52,227 nucleotides of DNA from an uncultured Candidatus Saccharibacteria bacterium. GTDB taxonomy: Bacteria; Patescibacteriota; Minisyncoccia; Phycocordibacterales; JACOZG01. A program made the position numbers and the translations under genes. The DNA is taken from positions 89,838 to 142,064 of the forward strand of contig CAYUVV010000001.1 in the NCBI GenBank assembly GCA_964448295.1. The letters are read 5' to 3'. Shown here one piece after another: positions 3,803-24,865 of the stretch (position 1 is its first letter; each line of letters begins with the position of its first letter). The notes below the pieces were generated by a model. The model was not told the DNA's origin, ran no database searches, and worked only from the letters and a program-made list of their open reading frames with translations.

Positions 3803-4632
3803 TTGTTTTTGATGTTGGAGGCACCAAAACTCGCGTCGCTTTATCTCGCGATGGAGAAACCCTGGTTGGGGAACCGTTTATCCAGCCCACGCCGGCCAAG
3901 TTGGTTGATGGTCTCGAATTGCTCACCCGTATGATTTTAGAGTTGTCGTCTGGAGAAACGATCGCCGCGATTGCCGGCGGCCTGCCCGGCCCGGTTGATC
4001 GGCATCACGGGCGGCTGGTTGCTGCTCCTAACTTGCCCGGTTGGGTGGGGGAACCGATTCGGGAGATTCTAGAACGGCGTTTGCAGTCCCCGGTTCTTTT
4101 AGAAAACGATGCCGCGTTGGTGGGTCTGGGAGAAGCGGTGTTTGGCGCTGGTCGCGGCGAACGGATTGTTGCTTACTTGACGGTGAGTACTGGTGTGGGT
4201 GGGGTAAGGGTTGTGGAGGGGCGGATAGACGAGCGGAGTTTAAGTTTTGAGCCCGGGCATCAACTGATTGACCCGGGGCGAACTCTCGCACCCGAAGCCC
4301 CTGGACCGTATTTGCAGGATTTAATTTCCGGCCGAGCGGTGGAAACTTATGTGGGCCGGCCTCCAAGAGAGATCAACGACCAAAAATTCTGGGACAAGAT
4401 CGCCTACTGGTTAGCTTTGGGTTTAAATAATACGATTGTGCACTGGTCGCCGCAGGTGGTCGTGCTCGGCGGCAGTATGTTCCACGAGCCCGGCATTAAA
4501 ATTGCCGATACCGAGCGTTATCTAAAAGCGGTCTTGCGTATTTTTGATGAACCGCCGCCACTCAAACCAGCCCAACTTGGTGATTTTGGCGGCCTTTACG
4601 GGGGTTTGGCTCTGCTAAGAACCGGTCGTTAG
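3790..4632 (+). CDS. ROK family sugar kinase (glucokinase-like)
   Basis: DVGGTK, ENDA, TVSTGVGG, EPGHQ motifs. Confidence 0.85.
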   Translation: MPNLIVFDVGGTKTRVALSRDGETLVGEPFIQPTPAKLVDGLELLTRMILELSSGETIAAIAGGLPGPVDRHHGRLVAAPNLPGWVGEPIREILERRLQSPVLLENDAALVGLGEAVFGAGRGERIVAYLTVSTGVGGVRVVEGRIDERSLSFEPGHQLIDPGRTLAPEAPGPYLQDLISGRAVETYVGRPPREINDQKFWDKIAYWLALGLNNTIVHWSPQVVVLGGSMFHEPGIKIADTERYLKAVLRIFDEPPPLKPAQLGDFGGLYGGLALLRTGR

Positions 4633-4653
4633 GTTTCAAGTTATCCCCAGTGT

Positions 4654-4676
4654 ACCGCCCTCGCGCGGGCGGTTTA
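4654..4676 (+). terminator. Short GC hairpin after the pepF-PGI-ROK operon, directly followed by a TATAAT
   Basis: ACCGCCC-tcgcgc-GGGCGGT then TTATAAT. Confidence 0.45.
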
Positions 4677-7578: not shown

Positions 7579-9639
7579 ATGCGTTTAGTTTTTTTGGTGG
7601 CCGTCGGCCTGCTTGCTTGGATTGGTTTGCCTGATTCTTGGCTGTCTTTGCCGGCGGTTAAGGAATTGACGGCGGGCAGTTTAATTTTAGTGGCTTCTTT
7701 GACCGGGCTCTGGTCATCGTTTCGTTCGGGGGTGTTGTCGTGGTTTTCTGGTTGGTGGGCGATCAGTTATTTCGTCCTCGCGGTCGTCGGCCTGGTCGCC
7801 TGGAGTTTGTCTGCGGGAACAATTGTAAGCATCGCTCCGAGTCTGGTTCTCGGTTTGGCGTTCATTTTAACAGCCTTCTCCGGTGGCGATGAGGTTTTTC
7901 GTCAGCGCTTATTTTTGGTCGGAATAGCGACTGGTTTTATTGCAATTCTGATTCAGCTTTTTTATTTTCCTGACGCGATCGCTGGTTCTTGGTTTGACCT
8001 TGGTTGGCTAGCTGTTTTGGCATTAGTGTTTGGTTCAGTTGTGCTAGATGGGGGAGGCCTGGTTCGAGCAAAAAAAATCGTCGTCTGGTTTTTAACTGTC
8101 GCTGGCTTAGTCGGAATGATTTTTACCAACCAGTGGTTTTTGTGGTTAATTGCGGTTTTGGGGCTGGGTTTGATCATAGTGAGCGGCTGGCGATTCGCTC
8201 GTTGGTGGCCGCACTCGACGGCCGCATTTGTTCTCACAGTTTTTGGCGCTTTTTCTTTGTCGTCGGTTACCCCCCTTGGCCATTTTTGGCAAGAGCAATT
8301 ACGAACTTGGGGGGTTGGACGGGAAACGTCAGTGATGACTTGGTCGGCGGCGTTTGAGTTGGCTGCGCGTGCCACTCCTACTCAAAAAATTTTTGGTTAT
8401 GGCTGGGGGCGCCTGGCCGACGCTTGGCGGGAGCACCGCCCTGTCCCCACCCCGATTTCGCCAGATGGTTTTTTTACCGACGTTGATCGCGGTCCTGGGT
8501 GGTTGGCGACTTGGACGCTCGAAACCGGCGCGCTTGGTCTCGGGGCTTGGTTATTTTTTAGTGTTTGTGGGTTTATAGTTTACGGTCGGATTTTTTATGA
8601 TTGGTGGCGCCGTCAATCGCCAACCGGGGAGCCGCCGGATTTTTTTCCTGTGGTTAGCGTGGCGGGCGCGTCGATGAGTCTTTTGATTTTTTGGTTTTGG
8701 CCACTCGGTTTTGTAGGAGCATTTTACGCTGTGATTATTTTGAGTTTACCCGTGGCCGGCATTGGCGCTAATCGGATGTTTTTGCGCCGATCGATCGTGC
8801 TACGCGAGCTCAACCCTGGCTTCCGGATCTGGTTTTACGTGCTTGGGATTGCCGCGGCTCTGCTTTTGGCGATCGTTCTGTTTTATTTAGTGATTGGTTC
8901 TGTGGCTCGAGCCTATGCCGAACGGGCTGAACGGTTTTTGGTTCTCAATCCAGACTCGATTTTATCTCTTGATTTGGCCAACACGGCCGTTTACTGGCGC
9001 GCTCACGACGACGATTACTGGCGGGTTGTTACAGCCGCGCGTCTTCAGCAATTCAACACCGCTCTTCGTTCCAAATTAACGACAACCGATGACAAGCTCG
9101 CTTCTCTCACTAAAGATTTATTGGCGGTGGCGGCGAAGGCAGTTGAACTGAACCCCGCCGATGCGCGGAATTGGTTTAGCCAAGGATACGTTTTTGAGTT
9201 TCTGGCAATGGCCGGCTTGCCTGGCGCTTGGCCCCAAGCGGCGGAGGCCTATCGCAAGGCGGCCGGCCTCGATCCTTACCAGCCGCTACGTAATCTGGCC
9301 GCCGCCCGCGCTTTGGTTGAGGCGGGTGATAAAACAGACGGGCCCGACTTTTATTTAGGCCGGTTTTTGTCAGCCTCGGCTGAGGAACCGTCCGCTTGGT
9401 TTCAGGCCGGTTATATTTTTTACAATGTTGAGAATTGGGAACGGGCAGCGGCGTTATTTGAGCAGGCCTTAGTCCTCGACCAGAATTACGCCGATGCTCG
9501 ATATCTACTTGCATTGAGCGAAGAACGTTTGGGTCTTACGGAACGAGCTTTGGCCAATTTGCGCTTGGTGGCGGCTGCCAACCCCGAGCATCCGGCGGTG
9601 GCAGAAGCACTATCGCGCTTGACCGTAGACCCGCTCTAG
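7579..9639 (+). CDS. Polytopic membrane protein (O-antigen-ligase-like) with C-terminal TPR repeats
   Basis: About 12 TM segments; FGYGWGR..., ETGALG; C-terminal AVELNP, AAALFEQALVLDQNYADARYLLA TPR patterns. Confidence 0.65.
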   Translation: MRLVFLVAVGLLAWIGLPDSWLSLPAVKELTAGSLILVASLTGLWSSFRSGVLSWFSGWWAISYFVLAVVGLVAWSLSAGTIVSIAPSLVLGLAFILTAFSGGDEVFRQRLFLVGIATGFIAILIQLFYFPDAIAGSWFDLGWLAVLALVFGSVVLDGGGLVRAKKIVVWFLTVAGLVGMIFTNQWFLWLIAVLGLGLIIVSGWRFARWWPHSTAAFVLTVFGAFSLSSVTPLGHFWQEQLRTWGVGRETSVMTWSAAFELAARATPTQKIFGYGWGRLADAWREHRPVPTPISPDGFFTDVDRGPGWLATWTLETGALGLGAWLFFSVCGFIVYGRIFYDWWRRQSPTGEPPDFFPVVSVAGASMSLLIFWFWPLGFVGAFYAVIILSLPVAGIGANRMFLRRSIVLRELNPGFRIWFYVLGIAAALLLAIVLFYLVIGSVARAYAERAERFLVLNPDSILSLDLANTAVYWRAHDDDYWRVVTAARLQQFNTALRSKLTTTDDKLASLTKDLLAVAAKAVELNPADARNWFSQGYVFEFLAMAGLPGAWPQAAEAYRKAAGLDPYQPLRNLAAARALVEAGDKTDGPDFYLGRFLSASAEEPSAWFQAGYIFYNVENWERAAALFEQALVLDQNYADARYLLALSEERLGLTERALANLRLVAAANPEHPAVAEALSRLTVDPL

Positions 9640-9661: not shown

Positions 9662-11341
9662 ATGGTCCGACGTTTTCTTAATTTGCTCGCTCGCGAAACT
9701 GTTAATTTTCAAGAAGCGGCCGTCTTGCTAGGTGCGGCGGCTGTCGTATCTCAACTGCTATCTTTAGCCCGCGACCGTCTATTGGCCGCCCGTTTTGGCG
9801 CTGGCCACGTTCTCGATGTTTATTACGCCGCTTTTCGTTTGCCGGATATGCTTTATGTCGGGATTGCCTCCTTTGTGTCCATTACCGTACTAATTCCCTT
9901 TTTGGTAACGCGCCTGGAAGAAGAAAAAAATCTCCGATCGTCCCGAGAGTTTCTAAGTCAAGCGTTCTCTTTTTTTATCGTGGTGATGGTGATTTGCGCC
10001 GCTTTGGCTTTTTGGTTGTTGCCAGAATTAGCTCCTTGGTTGGCTCCCGGTTTGCCCACTACGGCGCGCGCTGATTTTGTTAGTTTGTCGCGTTTATTGT
10101 TGCTTTCCCCTTTGTTGCTTGGCCTGTCTAACTTGTTTGGTGGGGTGGTGCAAGCGCACCGCCTGTTTTTCCTTTATGCTTGGAGTCCGATCGTCTACAA
10201 CTTGGGGATTATTGTCGGTGTTTTGTTTTTCGCGCCGCACTGGGGGACTTTTGGTTTAGGTTTAGGAGTAGTTCTGGGGGCCGCGGCGCATTGGTTGATT
10301 TTGGCTCCGGCCGTTTGGCGCCGGGGCTTGTGGCCACTTTTTTCTTTTCGGTGCCGCTGGGCGACGCTGGCGCCCGTCCTTCGGTTGTCTTTGCCTCGCA
10401 CAATCGCGCTCTCGTCTCACAACCTATCTCTGCTAGTTTTGGTGGCTCTGGCCACGCTTTTAGGCGAGGGGGCGGTGGCAGTGTTTAATTTCGCGTTTAA
10501 TCTTCAGTCGGTACCACTAGCGGTCGTGGGAGTCAGTTATTCTGTGGCGGCTTTTCCAACCCTGATTCGTTTAGCGCGTGGCGCACGGGACGGATTTTTA
10601 ACACAGATGACGTCCGCCGTTCGATCGATTTTATTTTGGTCTTTGCCTGCCGCCGCCCTGTTTGTGGTTTTGCGCGCGCAGATTGTGCGAACAATTCTCG
10701 GTTACGGTTTATTTGATTGGCGCGATACCCGTTTAACGGCCGCCGCTCTTGCCTTATTTGCGTTATCGGTGCCAGCGCAAAGTTTGGCTTTGCTGTTTAT
10801 TCGCGCCTATTATTCGGCCGGTGCAACGCGTCGGCCGGTAATAATTAGTCTCGCGGCGGCCGCGAGTCAGGTGGCGCTCGCAATCGTCGGTTTGTGGTGG
10901 TGGTCGGCCGATCCCATCCGGGCCGGCACAATTTCAACTTGGTTGCGGGTGGGTGATTTGGGTGAAACCGCGATAATTTTTTTACCGTTTGCGTTTTCAT
11001 TGGGCGTCTTGATCCAACTGGGTGGTTTGTGGTTTTTCTTCCGGCGCGATTTTGGCCGTTTGCCAATTCCACCTCGCTTTGTTGGCGATTTATCGCTCGC
11101 GACTTCGACCGCCGCCCTTACCGCCTATTTTGTTTTGCGCCTAGCGGACAACTGGTTTGATCTGGAGCGGGTCGCCGGAGTGTTTGGTCAAGGTCTCGTG
11201 GCGGGCCTGTTTGGTTTGCTGGTGTTTGTCGCCGTGTTACGCGCTCGGGGAAATGAAGATTTGCGTTCTTTAGGTACGGCTTTGCGACGTCGCTTTTGGC
11301 GCGTTCGCGTGGCGGCCGAATCACCGACCGAGATTTTATGA
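9662..11341 (+). CDS. murJ: Lipid II flippase MurJ (MviN)
   Basis: SQLLSLARDRLLAARFG, DVYYAAFRLPD, YSVAAFPTL, RAYYS motifs; many TMs. Confidence 0.9.
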   Translation: MVRRFLNLLARETVNFQEAAVLLGAAAVVSQLLSLARDRLLAARFGAGHVLDVYYAAFRLPDMLYVGIASFVSITVLIPFLVTRLEEEKNLRSSREFLSQAFSFFIVVMVICAALAFWLLPELAPWLAPGLPTTARADFVSLSRLLLLSPLLLGLSNLFGGVVQAHRLFFLYAWSPIVYNLGIIVGVLFFAPHWGTFGLGLGVVLGAAAHWLILAPAVWRRGLWPLFSFRCRWATLAPVLRLSLPRTIALSSHNLSLLVLVALATLLGEGAVAVFNFAFNLQSVPLAVVGVSYSVAAFPTLIRLARGARDGFLTQMTSAVRSILFWSLPAAALFVVLRAQIVRTILGYGLFDWRDTRLTAAALALFALSVPAQSLALLFIRAYYSAGATRRPVIISLAAAASQVALAIVGLWWWSADPIRAGTISTWLRVGDLGETAIIFLPFAFSLGVLIQLGGLWFFFRRDFGRLPIPPRFVGDLSLATSTAALTAYFVLRLADNWFDLERVAGVFGQGLVAGLFGLLVFVAVLRARGNEDLRSLGTALRRRFWRVRVAAESPTEIL

Positions 11342-13137
11342 ATCATCACCAACGAATTCGCAACTTTTCGATCATTGCCCATATTGATCACGGCAAGTCT
11401 ACCTTAGCTGACCGCTTGCTCGAAATTACTGGCACGATTCCCGCCCGCAAAATGCGAGAGCAGGTGCTTGATAGTATGGAACTCGAACGAGAGCGTGGGA
11501 TTACAATTAAAATGCAGCCCGTGCGGATGAATTACCGTGTCGCTGGTGAGGATTACGAGTTAAATTTGATCGACACCCCCGGGCACATCGATTTTTCTTA
11601 CGAGGTTTCGCGAGCGTTGCGGGCGGTTGAGGGCGTGCTCTTGCTTGTTGATGCTGGCAAGGGAATCCAAGCCCAAACCATTAGCGTGGTCGAAATGGCT
11701 CGGGCGCTGGATTTGCCAATTATTCCGGTGATCAACAAAATTGATTTGCCTTCGGCCGATGTTCCAACGGTCAAAAAAGAGCTTGCCGGTCTGCTAGGAG
11801 TCGCCGAAAAAGAGGTCTTGGCCGTTTCAGCAAAGACTGGTTTGGGAGTAGAGGCCGTCTTGGCGGCGGTGGTCGAAAAGTTACCACCGCCGCCGGTTTC
11901 GGCGCTCTCGGCCGAGCCACGAGCGCTCGTTTTCGATTTTTCTTTTTCTTCCCACCGCGGCCTAACGGTTTACGCCCGCTTGTTTGATGGCGAAATCCGT
12001 CGCGGTGATCGCCTGCGTTTAGCGGCGAGCGGCGAAGAGTTTACCGTGCAAGAAATTGGTTTTTTCAAACCAGAACCGCAACCACTAGCTAGTTTGGTGG
12101 CCGGCGAGATTGGTTACTTAGTAACCGGTATCAAGACGCCGCGTGGTGCGAAAGTGGGTGACACCCTGCTCGCGCCAACCAGCGGGTTGTTGCCAGTGAC
12201 TGGTTATCAAGAGCCCCGGCCGGTTGTTTTCGCCTCCCTGTATCCCGAAAGTCAGGACGGTTTTGTCGCTCTTCGTCAGGCCTTGACTACTCTCCAGTTA
12301 TCCGATGCCGCCGTATCGTTTGCGGAGGAATTTTCTTCAGCTTTGGGTCGCGGATTCCAGTGCGGATTTTTGGGGCTATTGCATTTGGAAATCGCGACCG
12401 AGAGATTGAAACGAGAGTTTGGCGTGGAAATGGTGATGACCACGCCCTCCATCCGTTACGAAGTGGTAAACAAGAACACGAATGTTCGTCAGGAAATTGC
12501 TTCACCGCCGTTGTTTCCGGAGAATACTAAAAATTATGAAGTGCGAGAGCCCTGGATCGCGGCGACGATTATTACTCCCTCAAATTATCTCGGGGCTTTA
12601 TTACAGGTTATTTACGATCACGAGGCGATAGTTTTGGAGACCGGCAATTTTGGCAATCGGACGCGTTTGAATATCGAAATGCCCTTGCGGGAGTTAATGC
12701 GGCGGTTTTTTGATGATCTAAAAAGTGTTTCCTCTGGCTACGCATCTTTTTCTTATCAACCTCTCGATTATCGTTCGGCGACGGTGGTGCGACTTGACGT
12801 TTTGGTCGCCGAGGAGCCGATTTGGCCGCTTTCTCGTTTGGTGGGACGAAGACGGTTGGAGATCGAGGCCAAGGAGGTAGTGGAACGCCTGCGCGATCTC
12901 TTACCACGGCAGTTATTCGTTCTCAAAATTCAAGCTCGGGCCGATGGACGGATTGTTGCCGCCCGCGCTGTGCCAGCTTTGCGCAAAGATGTTACCGGCT
13001 ATCTTTACGGCGGCGATATTACCCGTAAGCAGAAATTGTGGGCCAAGCAAAAACGCGGCAAAAAACGTCTACAAGAACGCGGGAGAGTCCGCATTCCGTC
13101 GAGTGTTTACCTCAAACTGCTTGGCGGCAGTGGTTAA
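11338..13137 (+). CDS. lepA: Translation elongation factor 4
   Basis: IRNFSIIAHIDHGKSTLADR, ERERGITIK, DTPGH, NKID, YGGDITRKQKL; start ATG 11338. Confidence 0.97.
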   Translation: MNHHQRIRNFSIIAHIDHGKSTLADRLLEITGTIPARKMREQVLDSMELERERGITIKMQPVRMNYRVAGEDYELNLIDTPGHIDFSYEVSRALRAVEGVLLLVDAGKGIQAQTISVVEMARALDLPIIPVINKIDLPSADVPTVKKELAGLLGVAEKEVLAVSAKTGLGVEAVLAAVVEKLPPPPVSALSAEPRALVFDFSFSSHRGLTVYARLFDGEIRRGDRLRLAASGEEFTVQEIGFFKPEPQPLASLVAGEIGYLVTGIKTPRGAKVGDTLLAPTSGLLPVTGYQEPRPVVFASLYPESQDGFVALRQALTTLQLSDAAVSFAEEFSSALGRGFQCGFLGLLHLEIATERLKREFGVEMVMTTPSIRYEVVNKNTNVRQEIASPPLFPENTKNYEVREPWIAATIITPSNYLGALLQVIYDHEAIVLETGNFGNRTRLNIEMPLRELMRRFFDDLKSVSSGYASFSYQPLDYRSATVVRLDVLVAEEPIWPLSRLVGRRRLEIEAKEVVERLRDLLPRQLFVLKIQARADGRIVAARAVPALRKDVTGYLYGGDITRKQKLWAKQKRGKKRLQERGRVRIPSSVYLKLLGGSG

Positions 13138-20960: not shown

Positions 20961-20962
20961 TG

Positions 20963-21034
20963 TGACCCCACCGGGAATCGAACCCGGATTTGCGCCTTGA
21001 AAGAGCGCTGTCCTAACCATTAGACGATGAGGCC
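20963..21034 (-). tRNA. tRNA-Glu (TTC)
   Basis: Reverse complement GGCCTCATCGTCTAATGGTTAGGAC AGCGCT-ctTTCaa-GGCGC...GGTTCGATTCCCGGTGGGGTCA; TTGGCA-17-TGtTAAAGT promoter upstream. Confidence 0.95.
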
Positions 21035-21260: not shown

Positions 21261-21296
21261 AAAAACAAGCTCCAGCTTTGGCCGGGGCTTGTTTTT
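21261..21296. terminator. Intrinsic terminator
   Basis: AAAAACAAGCTCC...GGGGCTTGTTTTT. Confidence 0.75.
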
Positions 21297-21312
21297 TGCT
21301 AGTATTTTCGGC

Positions 21313-21401
21313 GGAGGAGTGCCAGAGTGGTCGAATGGGCCGCACTCGAAATGCGGTGTCGCCCTTACCGGCGACCGTGGGTTCGAATCCCACCTCCTCC
21401 G
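21313..21401 (+). tRNA. tRNA-Ser (CGA)
   Basis: GGAGGAG/CTCCTCC-G, CCGCA-ctCGAaa-TGCGG, long variable arm GTCGCC..GGCGAC. Confidence 0.96.
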
Positions 21402-21514
21402 TTTTGACTAATTTTTCTAGACGTGATATAAGAAAGATTCGCCAGTCGTTATTGCTGGCTGGCGCGGTCGATCTTTATCATCTTAAAACACCAGGTTACT
21501 TGGTGATAACCAAC

Positions 21515-21829
21515 ATGTCGCTTTTCTTCTTTTTCGCCGTTGGAGTGTTGGAGCTCTTTATTGTCACGGCCTGGACGAAGGTGGTGGTGGGCTCGCGGGT
21601 GGTTATGAGCGGGGCCGTCACTTTTGTTAACGTGCTTATCTGGTATTTGGTGCTGGAGACTATTATCTCCGACATTAATAACTGGCCGCTCGTGCTAGTT
21701 TACGCGCTCGGTTGCGCGCTCGGCACGATGATCGGGGTTTCTTATCTTGATCGTAAAAGCGCGCCGGTGGACGAGATGGCGGACCAGTCGCCCAAACTAA
21801 TCGAACATGAGTCAGTCTCAATCGCCTGA
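21515..21829 (+). CDS. Small three-TM protein, DUF5698-like
   Basis: VNVLIW...LVLVYALGCALGTMIG pattern; start moved to ATG 21515 (longer ORF runs through tRNA-Ser). Confidence 0.65.
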   Translation: MSLFFFFAVGVLELFIVTAWTKVVVGSRVVMSGAVTFVNVLIWYLVLETIISDINNWPLVLVYALGCALGTMIGVSYLDRKSAPVDEMADQSPKLIEHESVSIA

Positions 21830-21858
21830 CGACGTTCCAGATCCCGACGGTAAATCCT

Positions 21859-21888
21859 AAAACGGCTTCGCGTGAGCGAGGCCGTTTT
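21859..21888. terminator. Intrinsic terminator
   Basis: AAAACGGCTTCGC-gtga-GCGAGGCCGTTTT. Confidence 0.7.
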
Positions 21889-21984
21889 ATGGTTAAGATA
21901 TAAAAAATATGAAAAGTTGTGCCAGCGCGAGCTTTACACGTCTAAGCACAGCCAATTAGTTTTAATGTCGCTTTGCTCGGCGAA

Positions 21985-22068
21985 TCCGTTTGGGCGGCAC
22001 GGGAAGGAAAGGGGGTGAGGGAGAAAGGAATTCCCGCGCCGCCCTCGCTTGCCGTCGATACGCTAAAA
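21985..22068 (+). repeat. 84-bp inverted repeat, left copy
   Basis: 80/84 identical to reverse complement of 23497-23580; internal GGGCGGC(A)CGGGAA/TTCCCGCGCCGCCC stem with purine-rich loop. Confidence 0.92.
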
Positions 22069-22069
22069 A

Positions 22070-23485
22070 CTACTTTGAATAAGATAAAGAGTCGATTATC
22101 TTATCAAAAAGTTTTTCAAGAGAAGCAAATTTCGCGTTTGTTCCTTCAAAATGAATGCTCATGCCCGGCCACTTGCTTGATTTCGTCTGCAAAATGGCGG
22201 CTTTGAATGGAATGGATTGTCTTTTGTCGGCAGGAATTTCGCCTTCTCCATATTCGTATTTGTAGGCGAAATTCCCCTTGAAGACGACAACTTTCACTCC
22301 GTTTGAAAGCGTTCGCAAATTACATTCGGTTATCTTTATGTCGTAAGAACCAGAAGAATCAAGATAAGCGTTCTTCTGGCAAGCTGTATCAAGCGATTGG
22401 CCAGAATACTGATAAAGAGGAGGTGAACCTTCGTAAACGTAATTTGCAGTCTTAGAGTTGTCGGCTTCAAATTCTACTTGTGCCGGATCATCCCAAGAAA
22501 AGAGAGGGCTCTTGAACGAGATATTGATAGTTTCAATTCGCGGCTCCGAACCAAACGCGCCGCCAGTTGATTCAACAAGGTTGCCCCAATACTTCGGAAC
22601 TTTAAATGCCACGCCTAACTCTTTGGAAGATTGAGCCGCGAATTGATTGATGTCAATCGGCAACGCTTTTACAGAAGCAAGAATATCCTGAAATTCTGCA
22701 TACTTCTGTTCGTTGAACAGCCCCTTAATCGTCGCGGCGTTCAATGATTGAGCGTTGGCAGGAAGTTTATTGGTTTTCTCCTGATAAACAATATAGATTA
22801 CTCGTTCATTCAAATTCGGGTCCTTGATGAAAACTCTATCTTCCAAAGTGTACTCAACGGGTGTCGTCTTATCTCTCGCGTATGCGTTCACATACGAATC
22901 AGTTAATCCAGTCGCGTAATATCTAACCGCTTCCATTCCGTTTATTTGAAATGGTTTGCTACCGGTTTCATCTTGATAGACATATTGTGGATAATCGTAA
23001 ATCGGAAATTGAGGATTATTTTTCTCAACCTGTAAGGGAATATCATAATGAGGCAAACCATTTCCAAGTCGAATGAAAGCGGAAAAACTTATGCAGTCAA
23101 TCGGGCAAGCATTCCGGCTATATCCGTTCGGATATTGATAGGATTGGAAAAAAATGTTTGGCAACATTTTGCTTCCATCTTCATCTTTATCAAGGAGAGA
23201 AAGTGTTTGTGGATACTGAAAACTTATCGCGGTGTCTGCATCTGTATACAAAGCATGTCCAGCTTTCGGAGTTTCCTGAACTGTATTTACAGAAGTGTTT
23301 GACTGATTTTTAACGATACTTGAATTTTTATAAAAATAATTTTTGTAGACAAAAAAACCAATGACCAACAAAATAATAACAACGCCAGTCAAAGCAAGAA
23401 CTAATTTTGAATTGCCGCTTTTTGGAGTATTGAAATTTGTTGGCGGCAAATTACCAACCTGTGGTTCTTTATTTTCTTCTTCCAT
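22070..23485 (-). CDS. Membrane-anchored surface protein with two PsbP-like domains (AT-rich gene)
   Basis: N-terminal tail + TM (LVLALTGVVIILLVIGFFVY), YTDADTAISFQYP and SKELGVAFKVPKYWG domain starts; start moved to ATG 23485 (471 aa). Confidence 0.75.
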   Translation of the reverse strand: MEEENKEPQVGNLPPTNFNTPKSGNSKLVLALTGVVIILLVIGFFVYKNYFYKNSSIVKNQSNTSVNTVQETPKAGHALYTDADTAISFQYPQTLSLLDKDEDGSKMLPNIFFQSYQYPNGYSRNACPIDCISFSAFIRLGNGLPHYDIPLQVEKNNPQFPIYDYPQYVYQDETGSKPFQINGMEAVRYYATGLTDSYVNAYARDKTTPVEYTLEDRVFIKDPNLNERVIYIVYQEKTNKLPANAQSLNAATIKGLFNEQKYAEFQDILASVKALPIDINQFAAQSSKELGVAFKVPKYWGNLVESTGGAFGSEPRIETINISFKSPLFSWDDPAQVEFEADNSKTANYVYEGSPPLYQYSGQSLDTACQKNAYLDSSGSYDIKITECNLRTLSNGVKVVVFKGNFAYKYEYGEGEIPADKRQSIPFKAAILQTKSSKWPGMSIHFEGTNAKFASLEKLFDKIIDSLSYSK

Positions 23486-23496
23486 ATTTATTGAAA

Positions 23497-23580
23497 TTTT
23501 AGCGCATCGACGGCAAGCGAGGGCGGCGCGGGAATTCCTTTCTCCCTCACCCCCTTTCCTTCCCGCGCCGCCCGAGCGGA
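23497..23580 (-). repeat. 84-bp inverted repeat, right copy (part of element end E2)
   Basis: Reverse complement matches 21985-22068 with 4 mismatches. Confidence 0.92.
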
Positions 23581-23619
23581 CAGTTTTGGGAAGTTCGCAA
23601 AACGCCGCAGGCGTTTTGC

Positions 23620-23776
23620 TCAAAATGGGTTCGCGCTACATTCAGAATATCCCACCAAAAGGAATTTTGCAAATTTTCGGAAGAGGTTGCCTCGCGGCTT
23701 CGCCCCTGCCGAGCGGCGAAGCCGCGAGGCAATGCTTCCGTCTGGCTCAAAAAATTCTGAAAGTTCCTGTTGGTGG
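23620..23776. mobile_element. att-like / recombinase-tail remnant forming an extended imperfect palindrome next to tRNA-Ala
   Basis: 18-bp perfect stem 23687-23704/23715-23732; both outward arms end in TGGTGG (23652-23657 on -, 23771-23776 on +) and match at 21/26 positions. Confidence 0.6.
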
Positions 23777-23844
23777 ACCTAGGGAGAATTGAACTCCCGC
23801 CTCCTCCATGCCATGGAGGCGTCGTACCACTAGACTATAGGCCC
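23771..23844 (-). tRNA. tRNA-Ala (GGC)
   Basis: Reverse complement GGGCCTA...CCTCC-atGGCat-GGAGG...TTCAATT...TAGGTCC-ACCA; A32-U38 typical of Ala-GGC. Confidence 0.95.
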
Positions 23845-23884
23845 GGGTAATACTATTCTACCGAATGCAGGATAGCACAAAACC

Positions 23885-24865
23885 ATGTCGCTCTCAATTG
23901 GCATCGTCGGTCTGCCCAATGTTGGCAAGTCAACCCTTTTTAACGCCCTGACGAAAAAAGGGGTGCCAGCCGAGAATTACCCCTTCTGCACCATTGACCC
24001 GTCGGTGGGAGTGGTGGCGGTACCTGATGAACGTCTAACTCGACTCTCGGTCTTTAGTCAATCGGCCAAAACCATTCCGGCCGCTGTTGAATTTGTCGAT
24101 ATCGCCGGTTTGGTAGCTGGCGCGGCGCGCGGCGAGGGACTTGGCAATCAGTTTTTGGCACACATCCGCGAGGTGGACGCCATCGCGCACGTTGTTCGCG
24201 TCTTTGAAGATGAAAAAGTAACGCACGTGGCGAACAAGATTGATCCGTTGGCGGATTTGGAAACGATCAATCTTGAACTAGCTTTAGCCGATCTTGAAAC
24301 GGTGGAAAAGCGCTTGAATGGTTTAGCGCGCGATGCTAAACGTGGCGACAAGGCGGCGCTGGCTGAAGAAGCGGCGCTTCGGTCAATCAAGCAAAAATTG
24401 GAAAAAGGGGAGTGGTCCGGCCCTAACAAGCCGCCATCGCTCCAACTGCTGACGGCTAAGCCCGTTATCTACGTTTTGAATATTTCGGCGGCGACGGAAA
24501 ATCAGGTGGAAAAAATTAAAACCAAATTGGCTGGGCAGAAAGTGGTGACAGTTGATCCGGTTTTTGACGCCGGCCTCGACGATCTGATTCGCGCTGGTTA
24601 TGAGCTGTTGGGTCTAATCACTTTTTTTACCACTGGGCCAGACGAAACTCGGGCTTGGACGATCAGGCGCGGGAGCACCGCGCCCGAGGCGGGTGCCGCC
24701 ATCCACTCCGATTTTTGCGACAAGTTTATTCGGGCCGAAGTAATTGGTTACGAAAAGTTGCTCAAAGCGGGCGGTTATGCCGCCGCACGGGAGCGCGGCT
24801 GGCTCCGCACCGAGGGTCGCGATTACATTGTTGAGGATGGTGATGTCATCGAGTTTAAGATTTAA
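23885..24865 (+). CDS. ychF: Redox-regulated ribosome-binding ATPase YchF
   Basis: GIVGLPNVGKSTLFNALT, YPFCTIDP, DIAGLV, FFTTGPDETRAW, GDVIEF. Confidence 0.96.
   Translation: MSLSIGIVGLPNVGKSTLFNALTKKGVPAENYPFCTIDPSVGVVAVPDERLTRLSVFSQSAKTIPAAVEFVDIAGLVAGAARGEGLGNQFLAHIREVDAIAHVVRVFEDEKVTHVANKIDPLADLETINLELALADLETVEKRLNGLARDAKRGDKAALAEEAALRSIKQKLEKGEWSGPNKPPSLQLLTAKPVIYVLNISAATENQVEKIKTKLAGQKVVTVDPVFDAGLDDLIRAGYELLGLITFFTTGPDETRAWTIRRGSTAPEAGAAIHSDFCDKFIRAEVIGYEKLLKAGGYAAARERGWLRTEGRDYIVEDGDVIEFKI

Follow-up and report, generated by a model that had tools for sequence, protein, structure and literature searches.

A stretch of 52,227 nt from an uncultured Candidatus Saccharibacteria bacterium (contig CAYUVV010000001.1, positions 89,838 to 142,064; hereafter the window) holds a gene for a 471-aa protein between two inverted repeats of 84 bp. 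The reading that we favour, with a probability of roughly 0.7, is that these repeats represent the stretches that have survived best in two inverted arms of about 160 nt bounding a cargo cassette, that cassettes of this kind are linked to a large serine recombinase (LSR), and that the copy in the window has been orphaned. The evidence comes from the anatomy of the repeats, from homologous arms round unrelated genes in other genomes (loci with L numbers below) and from the junctions at which arms, recombinase modules and tRNA genes meet.

The arm family and its cargoes

A repeat search returned 21985-22068 and 23497-23580 as inverted copies of 84 nt, complementary at 80 of 84 positions (95%) and spaced by 1428 nt, in agreement with the initial annotation of this DNA. 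The near-base bracketing reported there is borne out by the coordinates, the left arm lying 1 base from the stop codon and the right arm 11 bases from the ATG. The enclosed gene is indeed AT-rich (GC content 0.39, against 0.50 and 0.53 in the 1.5-kb flanks and 0.62-0.67 in the arms), and each copy contains the 14-bp GC stem that had been described, closed round a purine loop of 25 nt, with 14 of 14 pairs in the right copy and 13 of 14 in the left. Folded as single-stranded DNA, the right copy takes this structure (hairpin 1) and the left copy has a different, weaker structure at its energy minimum. Exactly two copies of the 53-nt hairpin core are present in the 52 kb, where 100 shuffles gave an expectation of 0, and neither exact counting of the core nor nhmmer found a further arm copy elsewhere in the window. 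The size of 84 bp holds for the inner part that the two copies share, not for the promoter-side arm, which is longer, with family homology extending to about 23677; since homology between the window and the related contig L006 runs from 23677 to 21983, this arm is present at full length. At the distal side the whole-arm profile matched 21904-22051, and a profile of the outer part alone gave a weak match to 21904-21984 (E 0.02), in register with the intact part.

The closest homologues of the cargo protein (88% amino acid identity; contigs L006-L008) are likewise bracketed by inverted repeats, with arms of about 160 nt in L006 (279-440 and 1865-2017). Two more distant homologues (72% and 68%) sit in ordinary operons (RecO-X-CLIPPER and NrdG-X) without arms. 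The flanks of L006 match the window at 16.5-17.2 kb, so that the cassette occupies a different place in that related genome.

The wider family was found by searching metagenome contigs for an exact 19-mer from the hairpin (GAAAGGAATTCCCGCGCCG), which gave 43 loci, about 30 of them true arms, and a nhmmer profile built from the true arms confirmed and extended it. Its members are structured arms of about 150-390 nt in metagenomes of Patescibacteria (the candidate phyla radiation, CPR). From the outer to the inner end they consist of a -10-like box, GCGCGAACCCATTTTGAG, hairpin 2, a spacer, hairpin 1 (composed of GGGCGGCGCGGGAA, the purine loop and TTCCCGCGCCGCCC) and CTCGCTTC; hairpin 2 is maintained by compensatory changes, and at 17 nt upstream of the -10-like box, beyond the repeat and on just one side, stands a -35-like TTGACA or TTGCAA. 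Inverted pairs measure 62-386 nt and are 84-100% identical within the pair (99-100% in L013, L022 and L051). The arms are usually found at or near tRNA 3' ends. Rfam held no RNA family for them at either gathering or E-value thresholds, and no arm copy was found in the viral collection.

At least eight independent elements have inverted arm pairs round unrelated cargo: the 471-aa protein in the window and L006-L008, a 359-aa protein in L011, L012 and L024, an ABC-F ATPase in L013, a HAD hydrolase with a protein of 380-423 aa in L019, L022 and L047, a patatin-like lipase in L051, OMP decarboxylase with a 253-aa protein in L068, five genes including AbiEii in L071, and ArsR, thioredoxin and ArsP in L076. 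Near-identical arm modules also occur with different cargo. In L011, L023 and L068 the LSR gene, the adjoining segment B' (see below) and the promoter-side arm (arm A) share 85-88% nucleotide identity and are followed by three different cargoes, the homology ending directly after hairpin 1 (at CTCGCTTC); the arm of L036 is 92% identical to that of the window, carries other cargo and diverges from it at window position 23513. Inside the hairpin 1 boundary each cassette has an inverted extension of its own of 16-35 nt, which in the window reads GCCGTCGATRCGCTAAAA. Homology stops at hairpin 1 while the cargo differs, so that this hairpin is the constant border at which a conserved adapter gives way to variable cargo, and the suggestion of an exchangeable cassette in the initial annotation has thus gained substance. 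Bracketing to within a few bases is specific to the cassette of the window and L006; most other cassettes have their cargo 65-210 nt inside the arms, with a promoter, Shine-Dalgarno sequence and terminator of its own.

Two loci show rearranged arms. In a solitary arm (L027:13055-13199) hairpin 1 has its purine loop turned round with respect to the flanks, so that the pyrimidine strand stands in the standard orientation, which looks like a small stem-mediated flip of the loop. In L039 (422-470) the inner end of a second, reversed arm (GTCGGCGCGAATTTTTCCAAAGCGAGGG) directly abuts the outer end of a full arm (TGTATC), as a head-to-tail remnant.

Recombinase modules, tRNA ends and junctions

An LSR of 457-560 aa with Resolvase, Recombinase and Zn_ribbon_recom domains is encoded in L011, L013, L022, L023, L024 and L036, divergently and 200-300 nt outside the promoter-side arm. 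In L013 and L022 its gene is itself enclosed by a second perfect inverted repeat, B, of 137-150 nt, one copy of which abuts a tRNA 3' end and the other arm A. An independent route, which started from LSR homologues (more than 2,483 at E<1e-30) and took long contigs, led to the same arrangement: a B repeat of 118-209 nt surrounds the LSR gene in all six loci obtained, abuts a tRNA 3' end in five and is followed by an arm-bracketed cassette in three. In L068 (182 kb) the order is flank, A and A' round the OMP decarboxylase and 253-aa genes, B and B' round the recombinase, and tRNA-Lys, and L071 (134 kb) has the same layout with its five cargo genes at tRNA-Leu. The recombinase of L076 (216 kb) is 48% identical, with 386-nt A arms round ArsR/thioredoxin/ArsP, 159-nt B arms and tRNA-Pro. 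L070 (53 kb) has B arms round the recombinase abutting tRNA-Lys; in L075 (135 kb) the B arms surround the recombinase and the tRNA (Pro) lies about 1.1 kb off, without abutment; and in L072 (260 kb) a single repeat encloses a cNMP-TIR gene together with the recombinase, at tRNA-Leu. The elements are about 3.7-6 kb long and comprise the recombinase and one to five cargo genes; neither phage nor conjugation genes occurred in those examined. In the 52 kb of the window tblastn detected no LSR, nor any other recombinase or transposase homologue, in line with the statement in the initial annotation that neither a transposase nor an invertase is encoded there.

Several of these loci show signs of further insertions. 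On the far side of the L022 cargo cassette the flank (L022:2-652) consists of the 3' end of another LSR gene, of diverged sequence, and the arm is preceded by B'-like sequence, which points to elements having accumulated in tandem at one tRNA-Leu. In L068 a perfect direct repeat of 489 nt (8658-9146 and 11149-11637), with a 94-aa open reading frame (ORF) in each copy, surrounds a 526-aa gene directly past the tRNA-Lys at the border of the recombinase element; it may be a second kind of cassette at the same hotspot. L051:2224-6174 has tRNA-Lys(CTT) twice (2461-2536 and 4587-4660) and several more direct and inverted repeats within 4 kb, and the same palindromic terminator follows each tRNA-Lys(CTT) and also forms the outer end of both arms. 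In L006 (2276-2361 and about 2521-2540; also in L007) a near-copy of the tRNA-Tyr 3' end (GGTCCAGCTCGGCGCACCA) lies about 180 nt downstream and looks like an att duplication from another small insertion. Very many LSR homologues were found on contigs of 1.7-5 kb, as would fit assembly breaks at long inverted repeats or small free circles.

The complete layout in these relatives is a tRNA 3' end, an inverted B', the LSR gene, B' joined to A, the cargo, an inverted A and the flank. The three junctions in it (B' with A at the centre, B' with the reverse-complemented tRNA, and flank with A at the far side) share a core of 3-6 nt and swap halves, and triplets of this hybrid type were found in L013, L022, L068 and L071. 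Judged by their sequences, they form the pattern expected of attP, attR and attL. All six elements compared have a GAAC box (CGAACC, the reverse complement of the tRNA T-loop) after the core, positioned at +15 on the side of the tRNA and at +20 within arm A. In serine integrases the motif bound by the zinc-ribbon domain is 5 bp nearer the centre in attB than in attP (PMC3783163). Since the 5-bp shift of the box matches this offset, we read the outer 40 nt or so of arm A as a putative recombinase half-site, of attP type, that mimics the tRNA T-arm. The promoter-side arm of the window retains an intact junction of the two P-type halves, with the GAAC box at +20. Homology of the window to L006 and L036 begins within 23652-23686, and the TTGCAAAATTCCTnTTGGTGG at the end of this segment is conserved in the window, L006, L036, L068 and L011. 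The hairpin that follows it towards the tRNA-Ala gene corresponds to the GC hairpin in the B' segment of related loci and has equivalents in L016 and L022. The coordinates are collected in Table 1. No empty site was found for L013, L022, L068 or L071, nor for the window, where the closest relatives by YchF were examined: the contig of L073 stops within tRNA-Ala, and L074 has no arms and is too diverged.

These features suggest a mechanism in which the elements integrate at tRNA 3' ends through LSR-mediated recombination of attP with attB and keep an inverted copy of the attP region inside them. The central junction is attP-like, and the outer ones (B' with tRNA, flank with A) are of the kind expected of attP x attB recombination; the cargo module and the recombinase module thus each lie inside a long inverted repeat. 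The central junction would double as a promoter with -35-like and -10-like boxes, from which the cargo is transcribed away, and since the junction is promoter-like and the cargo always points away from it, the arm would also be the 5' leader of the cargo. The inverted copy could arise in two ways. One is an excised circle with two inverted attP copies, similar to the 2-micron plasmid: circularised on paper, L013 and L022 yield circles of about 3.7-4.1 kb with two inverted copies of B'A between a recombinase and a cargo segment. The other is a pair of repeat-bounded modules that were nested or inserted successively at the same tRNA end, a model that the junctions of tRNA with A in L019 and L051 fit better.

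Table 1. Features of the cassette and its surroundings (window coordinates)
Feature	Position	Strand	Remarks
tRNA-Ala(GGC)	23771..23844	-	ARAGORN and Rfam; upstream of the cassette, same direction
21-bp GC-rich hairpin between tRNA-Ala and arm	23687..23732		Inverted repeat
B-prime-head-like segment, left (P-type) half of the attP-like site	23652..23686	-	Holds -35-like TTGCAA, 23667-23672
Promoter-side arm A, full length	23497..23651	-	nhmmer 150.7 bits
-10-like TATTCT in arm A	23644-23649		
CGCGAACC box in arm A, putative P'-type half-site	23628-23635		
Hairpin 2 of arm A	23597-23619		
Hairpin 1 with purine loop, arm A	23521-23573		
Cassette-specific inner extension of arm A	23497-23513		L036 homology break falls at its end
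Cargo gene, 471 aa	22070..23485	-	Stop 22070-22072, ATG 23485-23483
Distal arm, intact inner 84 nt (hairpin 1 and inner extension)	21985..22068	+	Inverted relative to 23497-23580
Probable decayed outer half of distal arm	21904..21984	+	Retains AGCGCGAGC box
Hairpin 3' of DUF5698 gene, distal flank	21853..21894	+	Inverted repeat
DUF5698 ORF	21278-21829		tRNA-Ser side
tRNA-Ser	21312-21402	+	
tRNA-Glu	20962-21034	-	

The copy in the window is most likely an orphaned, immobile cassette: because there is no LSR gene in the 52 kb and the distal half-site has decayed, it is probably fixed in place. By its base composition the cargo gene looks foreign and was most likely acquired horizontally, and it is most likely expressed from the arm. 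Its product has 17 homologues among 5.8 billion proteins, and an exact look-up of the protein returned no further contig. An AlphaFold model (15-sequence alignment; predicted local distance difference test, pLDDT, 76.8; predicted template-modelling score, pTM, 0.72) has an N-terminal transmembrane helix (residues 26-51) and two beta-rich domains. The two PsbP-like domains proposed in the initial annotation stand at the level of fold: Foldseek placed PsbP chains at the top of its matches in the PDB (E 9e-5 to 1e-2, template-modelling score to target 0.44-0.55, about 200 of 471 residues; the match at E 9e-5 scored about 0.47), followed by LpqN and Mog1p. They found no counterpart in Pfam, where no family matches the window protein; the homologue P0010 reached 28.1 bits against PsbP_2 (cut-off 27), over the N-terminal third of the model only and with no single stretch within the E-value limit. 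The protein is probably membrane-anchored and extracytoplasmic, with a predicted PsbP/Mog1-like fold, and a role in host attachment would be speculation.

Just inside the repeats, 22069-22095 and 23470-23496 have a weak residual likeness (TTTCAATAAATATGGAAG against CTTTGAATAAGATAAAGA), with an indel of 4-5 nt that contains the stop codon; it recurs in L006 and could be due to chance in such AT-rich sequence. On the other side of the promoter-side arm the neighbourhood of tRNA-Ala is variable: comparison of L073:1-680 with window 23798-23894 shows that this closest relative (YchF 87% identical) has an acetyltransferase gene between tRNA-Ala and ychF that is absent from the window. Among named organisms the best match to YchF, at 73%, was in Candidatus Vogelbacteria, and the host is a member of the Patescibacteria.

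Counter-evidence and alternative readings

Several observations weigh against an LSR-linked cassette. There is no recombinase gene beside this cassette in the window or in L006, where the upstream sequence is a fragment of an IS630-like helix-turn-helix gene, so that the link of the window cassette to an LSR runs through arm homology and not through direct association. We found no way to derive the long inverted duplication from a single attP x attB event, and we know of no LSR element with an internal inverted attP. Neither a circular form nor a product of excision came to light. The -35 and -10 boxes of the window match at 8 of 12 positions and were not called by the promoter scan. The conservation of hairpin 1 is partly forced, the search pattern having been taken from it. 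Finally, many arms stand alone (L016, L046 and L038 among them), with terminator-like hairpins behind them, an arrangement that a small RNA gene would fit as well.

This last point bears on an alternative that we consider unlikely, in which the arm acts in RNA, as a structured 5' leader or small RNA, its inverted 3' copy forming a panhandle with it at the ends of the mRNA for stability, processing (of RNase III type) or translation; with the same low likelihood, the purine loop would be a ribosome stand-by site. The repeat starts at the -10-like box in L006, L013, L022 and L068 (read through the junction) and in the window comes to within 11 nt of the ATG on one side and 1 nt of the stop codon on the other, so that the repeated unit would roughly equal the 5' untranslated region. 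The compensatory changes in hairpin 2 and the hairpins behind solitary arms also favour it. The window cargo has no Shine-Dalgarno sequence upstream of its ATG (at GCTAAAATTTCAATAAATATG), and some 60 nt further upstream (within 23486-23560, minus strand) the hairpin 1 loop reads GAAAGGGGGTGA, with 1 mismatch in 12 to the consensus of an ideal extended Shine-Dalgarno sequence, GAAAGGAGGTGA. This is countered by the promoters, Shine-Dalgarno sequences and terminators that most other cassettes have inside their arms, by the recombinase-type junction triplets and the 5-bp shift of the box, which are signatures at the level of DNA, by the lack of an Rfam match, and by the flipped loop of L027, which a strand-specific role in RNA would not tolerate. 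The promoter and terminator scan called no terminator in the arms, and a search for RNA-seq runs that contain the region returned none. An RNA role could exist alongside the DNA role.

The initial annotation had also raised the idea of an invertible cassette. As an on/off switch, recombination between the arms would reverse the whole gene with respect to the promoter that lies at the arm's outer edge and so vary the phase of a surface protein. Long inverted repeats round a whole gene do permit inversion by homologous recombination, the -35 box lies outside the repeat, the cargo protein is of a surface type, and in relatives a serine recombinase gene stands beside such cassettes, as with Hin, Gin and Cin. 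We nevertheless regard this as improbable. The cargo and the central, promoter-side arm share one orientation in 9 of 9 independent elements, and in 7 of 7 the recombinase gene is directed away from the centre. The enzyme is of the large serine integrase type, which acts on no pair of sites but attP x attB unless a directionality factor is present (PMC3783163). Taken together, the fixed orientations and this restriction argue against a recombinase-driven flip-flop. Moreover, the cargoes are mostly housekeeping and defence genes, untypical of phase variation, and the window has no recombinase in its 52 kb and no outer site in its distal arm. Read-through from the tRNA-Ala and tRNA-Ser sides in turn, which inversion had been proposed to switch, has no support. 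On the tRNA-Ser side there is a hairpin at 21853-21894, which we read as the terminator of the DUF5698 gene and which was missing from the calls of the terminator scan, and the arm family itself provides promoter-like -35 and -10 boxes. Contigs from Logan break inside both arms, and the sole strand-switch joint among them lies wholly within the repeat and is therefore uninformative on inversion.

A composite of miniature inverted-repeat transposable elements (MITEs) or of doublets of repetitive extragenic palindromes (REPINs), the other proposal of the initial annotation, would require two high-copy, non-autonomous repeats to have inserted by chance on either side of a gene that they could then mobilise. 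The arms are short, structured, non-coding and present in many contigs, with solitary copies among them, and yet we hold this to be very unlikely. Depth at the shared repeat was about twice that of the single-copy flank in the source-sample run X1, which suggests about two arm copies in the source genome, with none elsewhere in the 52 kb. The exact core occurs in only 2 of 185,579 GTDB representative genomes (L061 and L062, a Kerfeldbacteria metagenome-assembled genome and another labelled Saccharibacteria, both CPR), the other matches in the genome collection being mostly chance ones in coding regions, so that the scattered high-copy REP sequence also envisaged at the outset is not what was found. 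No target-site duplication or direct repeat was seen just outside the arms, the outer ends coincide with tRNA or att-type cores, the two arms of a pair have inner extensions peculiar to their cassette and are more closely related to each other than to any other arm, and the linked enzyme is a serine integrase, with no transposase or REP-associated tyrosine transposase (RAYT) linked to the arms. An assembly artefact, a chimeric inverted duplication, is hardly credible: assemblers do break or mis-join at inverted repeats, as the Logan contigs do and as L007 and L008, which end inside arms, illustrate, but the arms of the window differ at 4 of 84 positions, one contig of run X3 continues through the left arm into the cargo, and many independent samples and assemblers yield this architecture anew, the pairs being 84-100% identical and the contigs up to 260 kb long.

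Four further ideas were considered and set aside: a G-quadruplex formed by the purine loop, rolling-hairpin replication like that of parvovirus inverted terminal repeats, telomere-resolvase palindromes, and hairpin ends of the IS200/IS605 type. No enzyme associated with them was seen in the loci examined.

Known systems and significance

If the cassettes are LSR-linked, as we favour, their working is most like that of a serine-integrase integrative element and their ecological role most like that of tycheposons. The enzyme of the relatives has the same three-domain architecture as those of LSR elements and prophages (phiC31, Bxb1, the A118/LI integrase, Ccr of SCCmec, TnpX of Tn4451), and the short shared crossover core, the element-side box 5 bp further out and the attL- and attR-like outer junctions are alike as well. 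The LSR elements known to us have att sites of about 50 bp and no long repeats. Unlike them, the present elements have an internal inverted, full attP-like copy, which results in inverted repeats of 120-390 nt round each module, and they are tiny in the relatives (about 3.7-6 kb), the window copy being without a recombinase. Tycheposons have flanking direct repeats. In the preprint that describes them in Prochlorococcus (bioRxiv 10.1101/2020.12.28.424599), where inverted repeats are named a single time, they appear as small cargo-carrying elements at tRNA genes of streamlined genomes, with modular niche and defence cargo, a minority using a large serine recombinase and most tyrosine recombinases; they differ in having replication modules and partial tRNA genes at their ends and in the host phylum.

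With the yeast 2-micron plasmid (FLP/FRT) the elements would share, if they excise, only a geometry that follows from their coordinates, namely two unique segments and two long inverted repeats, with a site in the middle of each repeat. Differences are that FLP is a tyrosine recombinase and that 2-micron is a eukaryotic plasmid with no integrated form at tRNA genes known. Like Hin, Gin, Cin and Pin, the relatives have a serine recombinase gene directly next to a segment that inverted repeats enclose; those systems have small invertases, sites of 26-34 bp, an enhancer and both orientations, whereas the relatives have LSRs of 457-560 aa, repeats 5-10 times longer and one orientation (9/9). Integron cassettes (attI/attC, Pc) are similar in having a recombinase divergent from a promoter and site, followed by exchangeable cargo, and structured hairpin repeats. 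They differ in that IntI is a tyrosine recombinase, attC arrays are in direct orientation and the cassettes are promoterless, none of which holds here, where the arms are inverted and the enzyme is a serine recombinase.

It is tempting, and in our estimate doubtful, to go further and see an undescribed class of miniature integrative elements of Patescibacteria, made up of an LSR and swappable cargo modules, with an internal inverted attP, an excised circle similar to 2-micron, exchange of cargo at the GC hairpin and, in the window, an orphaned cassette. The exchange at the hairpin, which is equally tentative, would be a natural counterpart of recombinase-mediated cassette exchange. Serine-integrase elements themselves are known; in the literature searched we found no earlier description of a two-module architecture bracketed by inverted repeats, and nothing matching on LSRs in CPR or on LSR elements with long terminal inverted repeats.

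CPR bacteria have tiny genomes. To our knowledge few mobile elements have been described in them, and their gain of accessory genes is poorly understood. Our comparison indicates a recurrent, compact architecture for gene delivery, apparent from the order of tRNA, LSR and inverted-repeat-bracketed cargo, in which the cargo comprises surface, defence (AbiE, TIR, patatin), resistance (ArsR/ArsP) and metabolic genes. The result for the window alone is more modest, probably a horizontally acquired gene for a membrane-anchored protein in a decayed cassette. If the elements are active, their use of sites, with an internal inverted attP and a mimic of the tRNA T-arm, would be unusual for serine integrases, and they would be a source of new small integrases with defined targets at tRNA ends. 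Active elements of this kind would also help to explain strain-level variation among these episymbionts.

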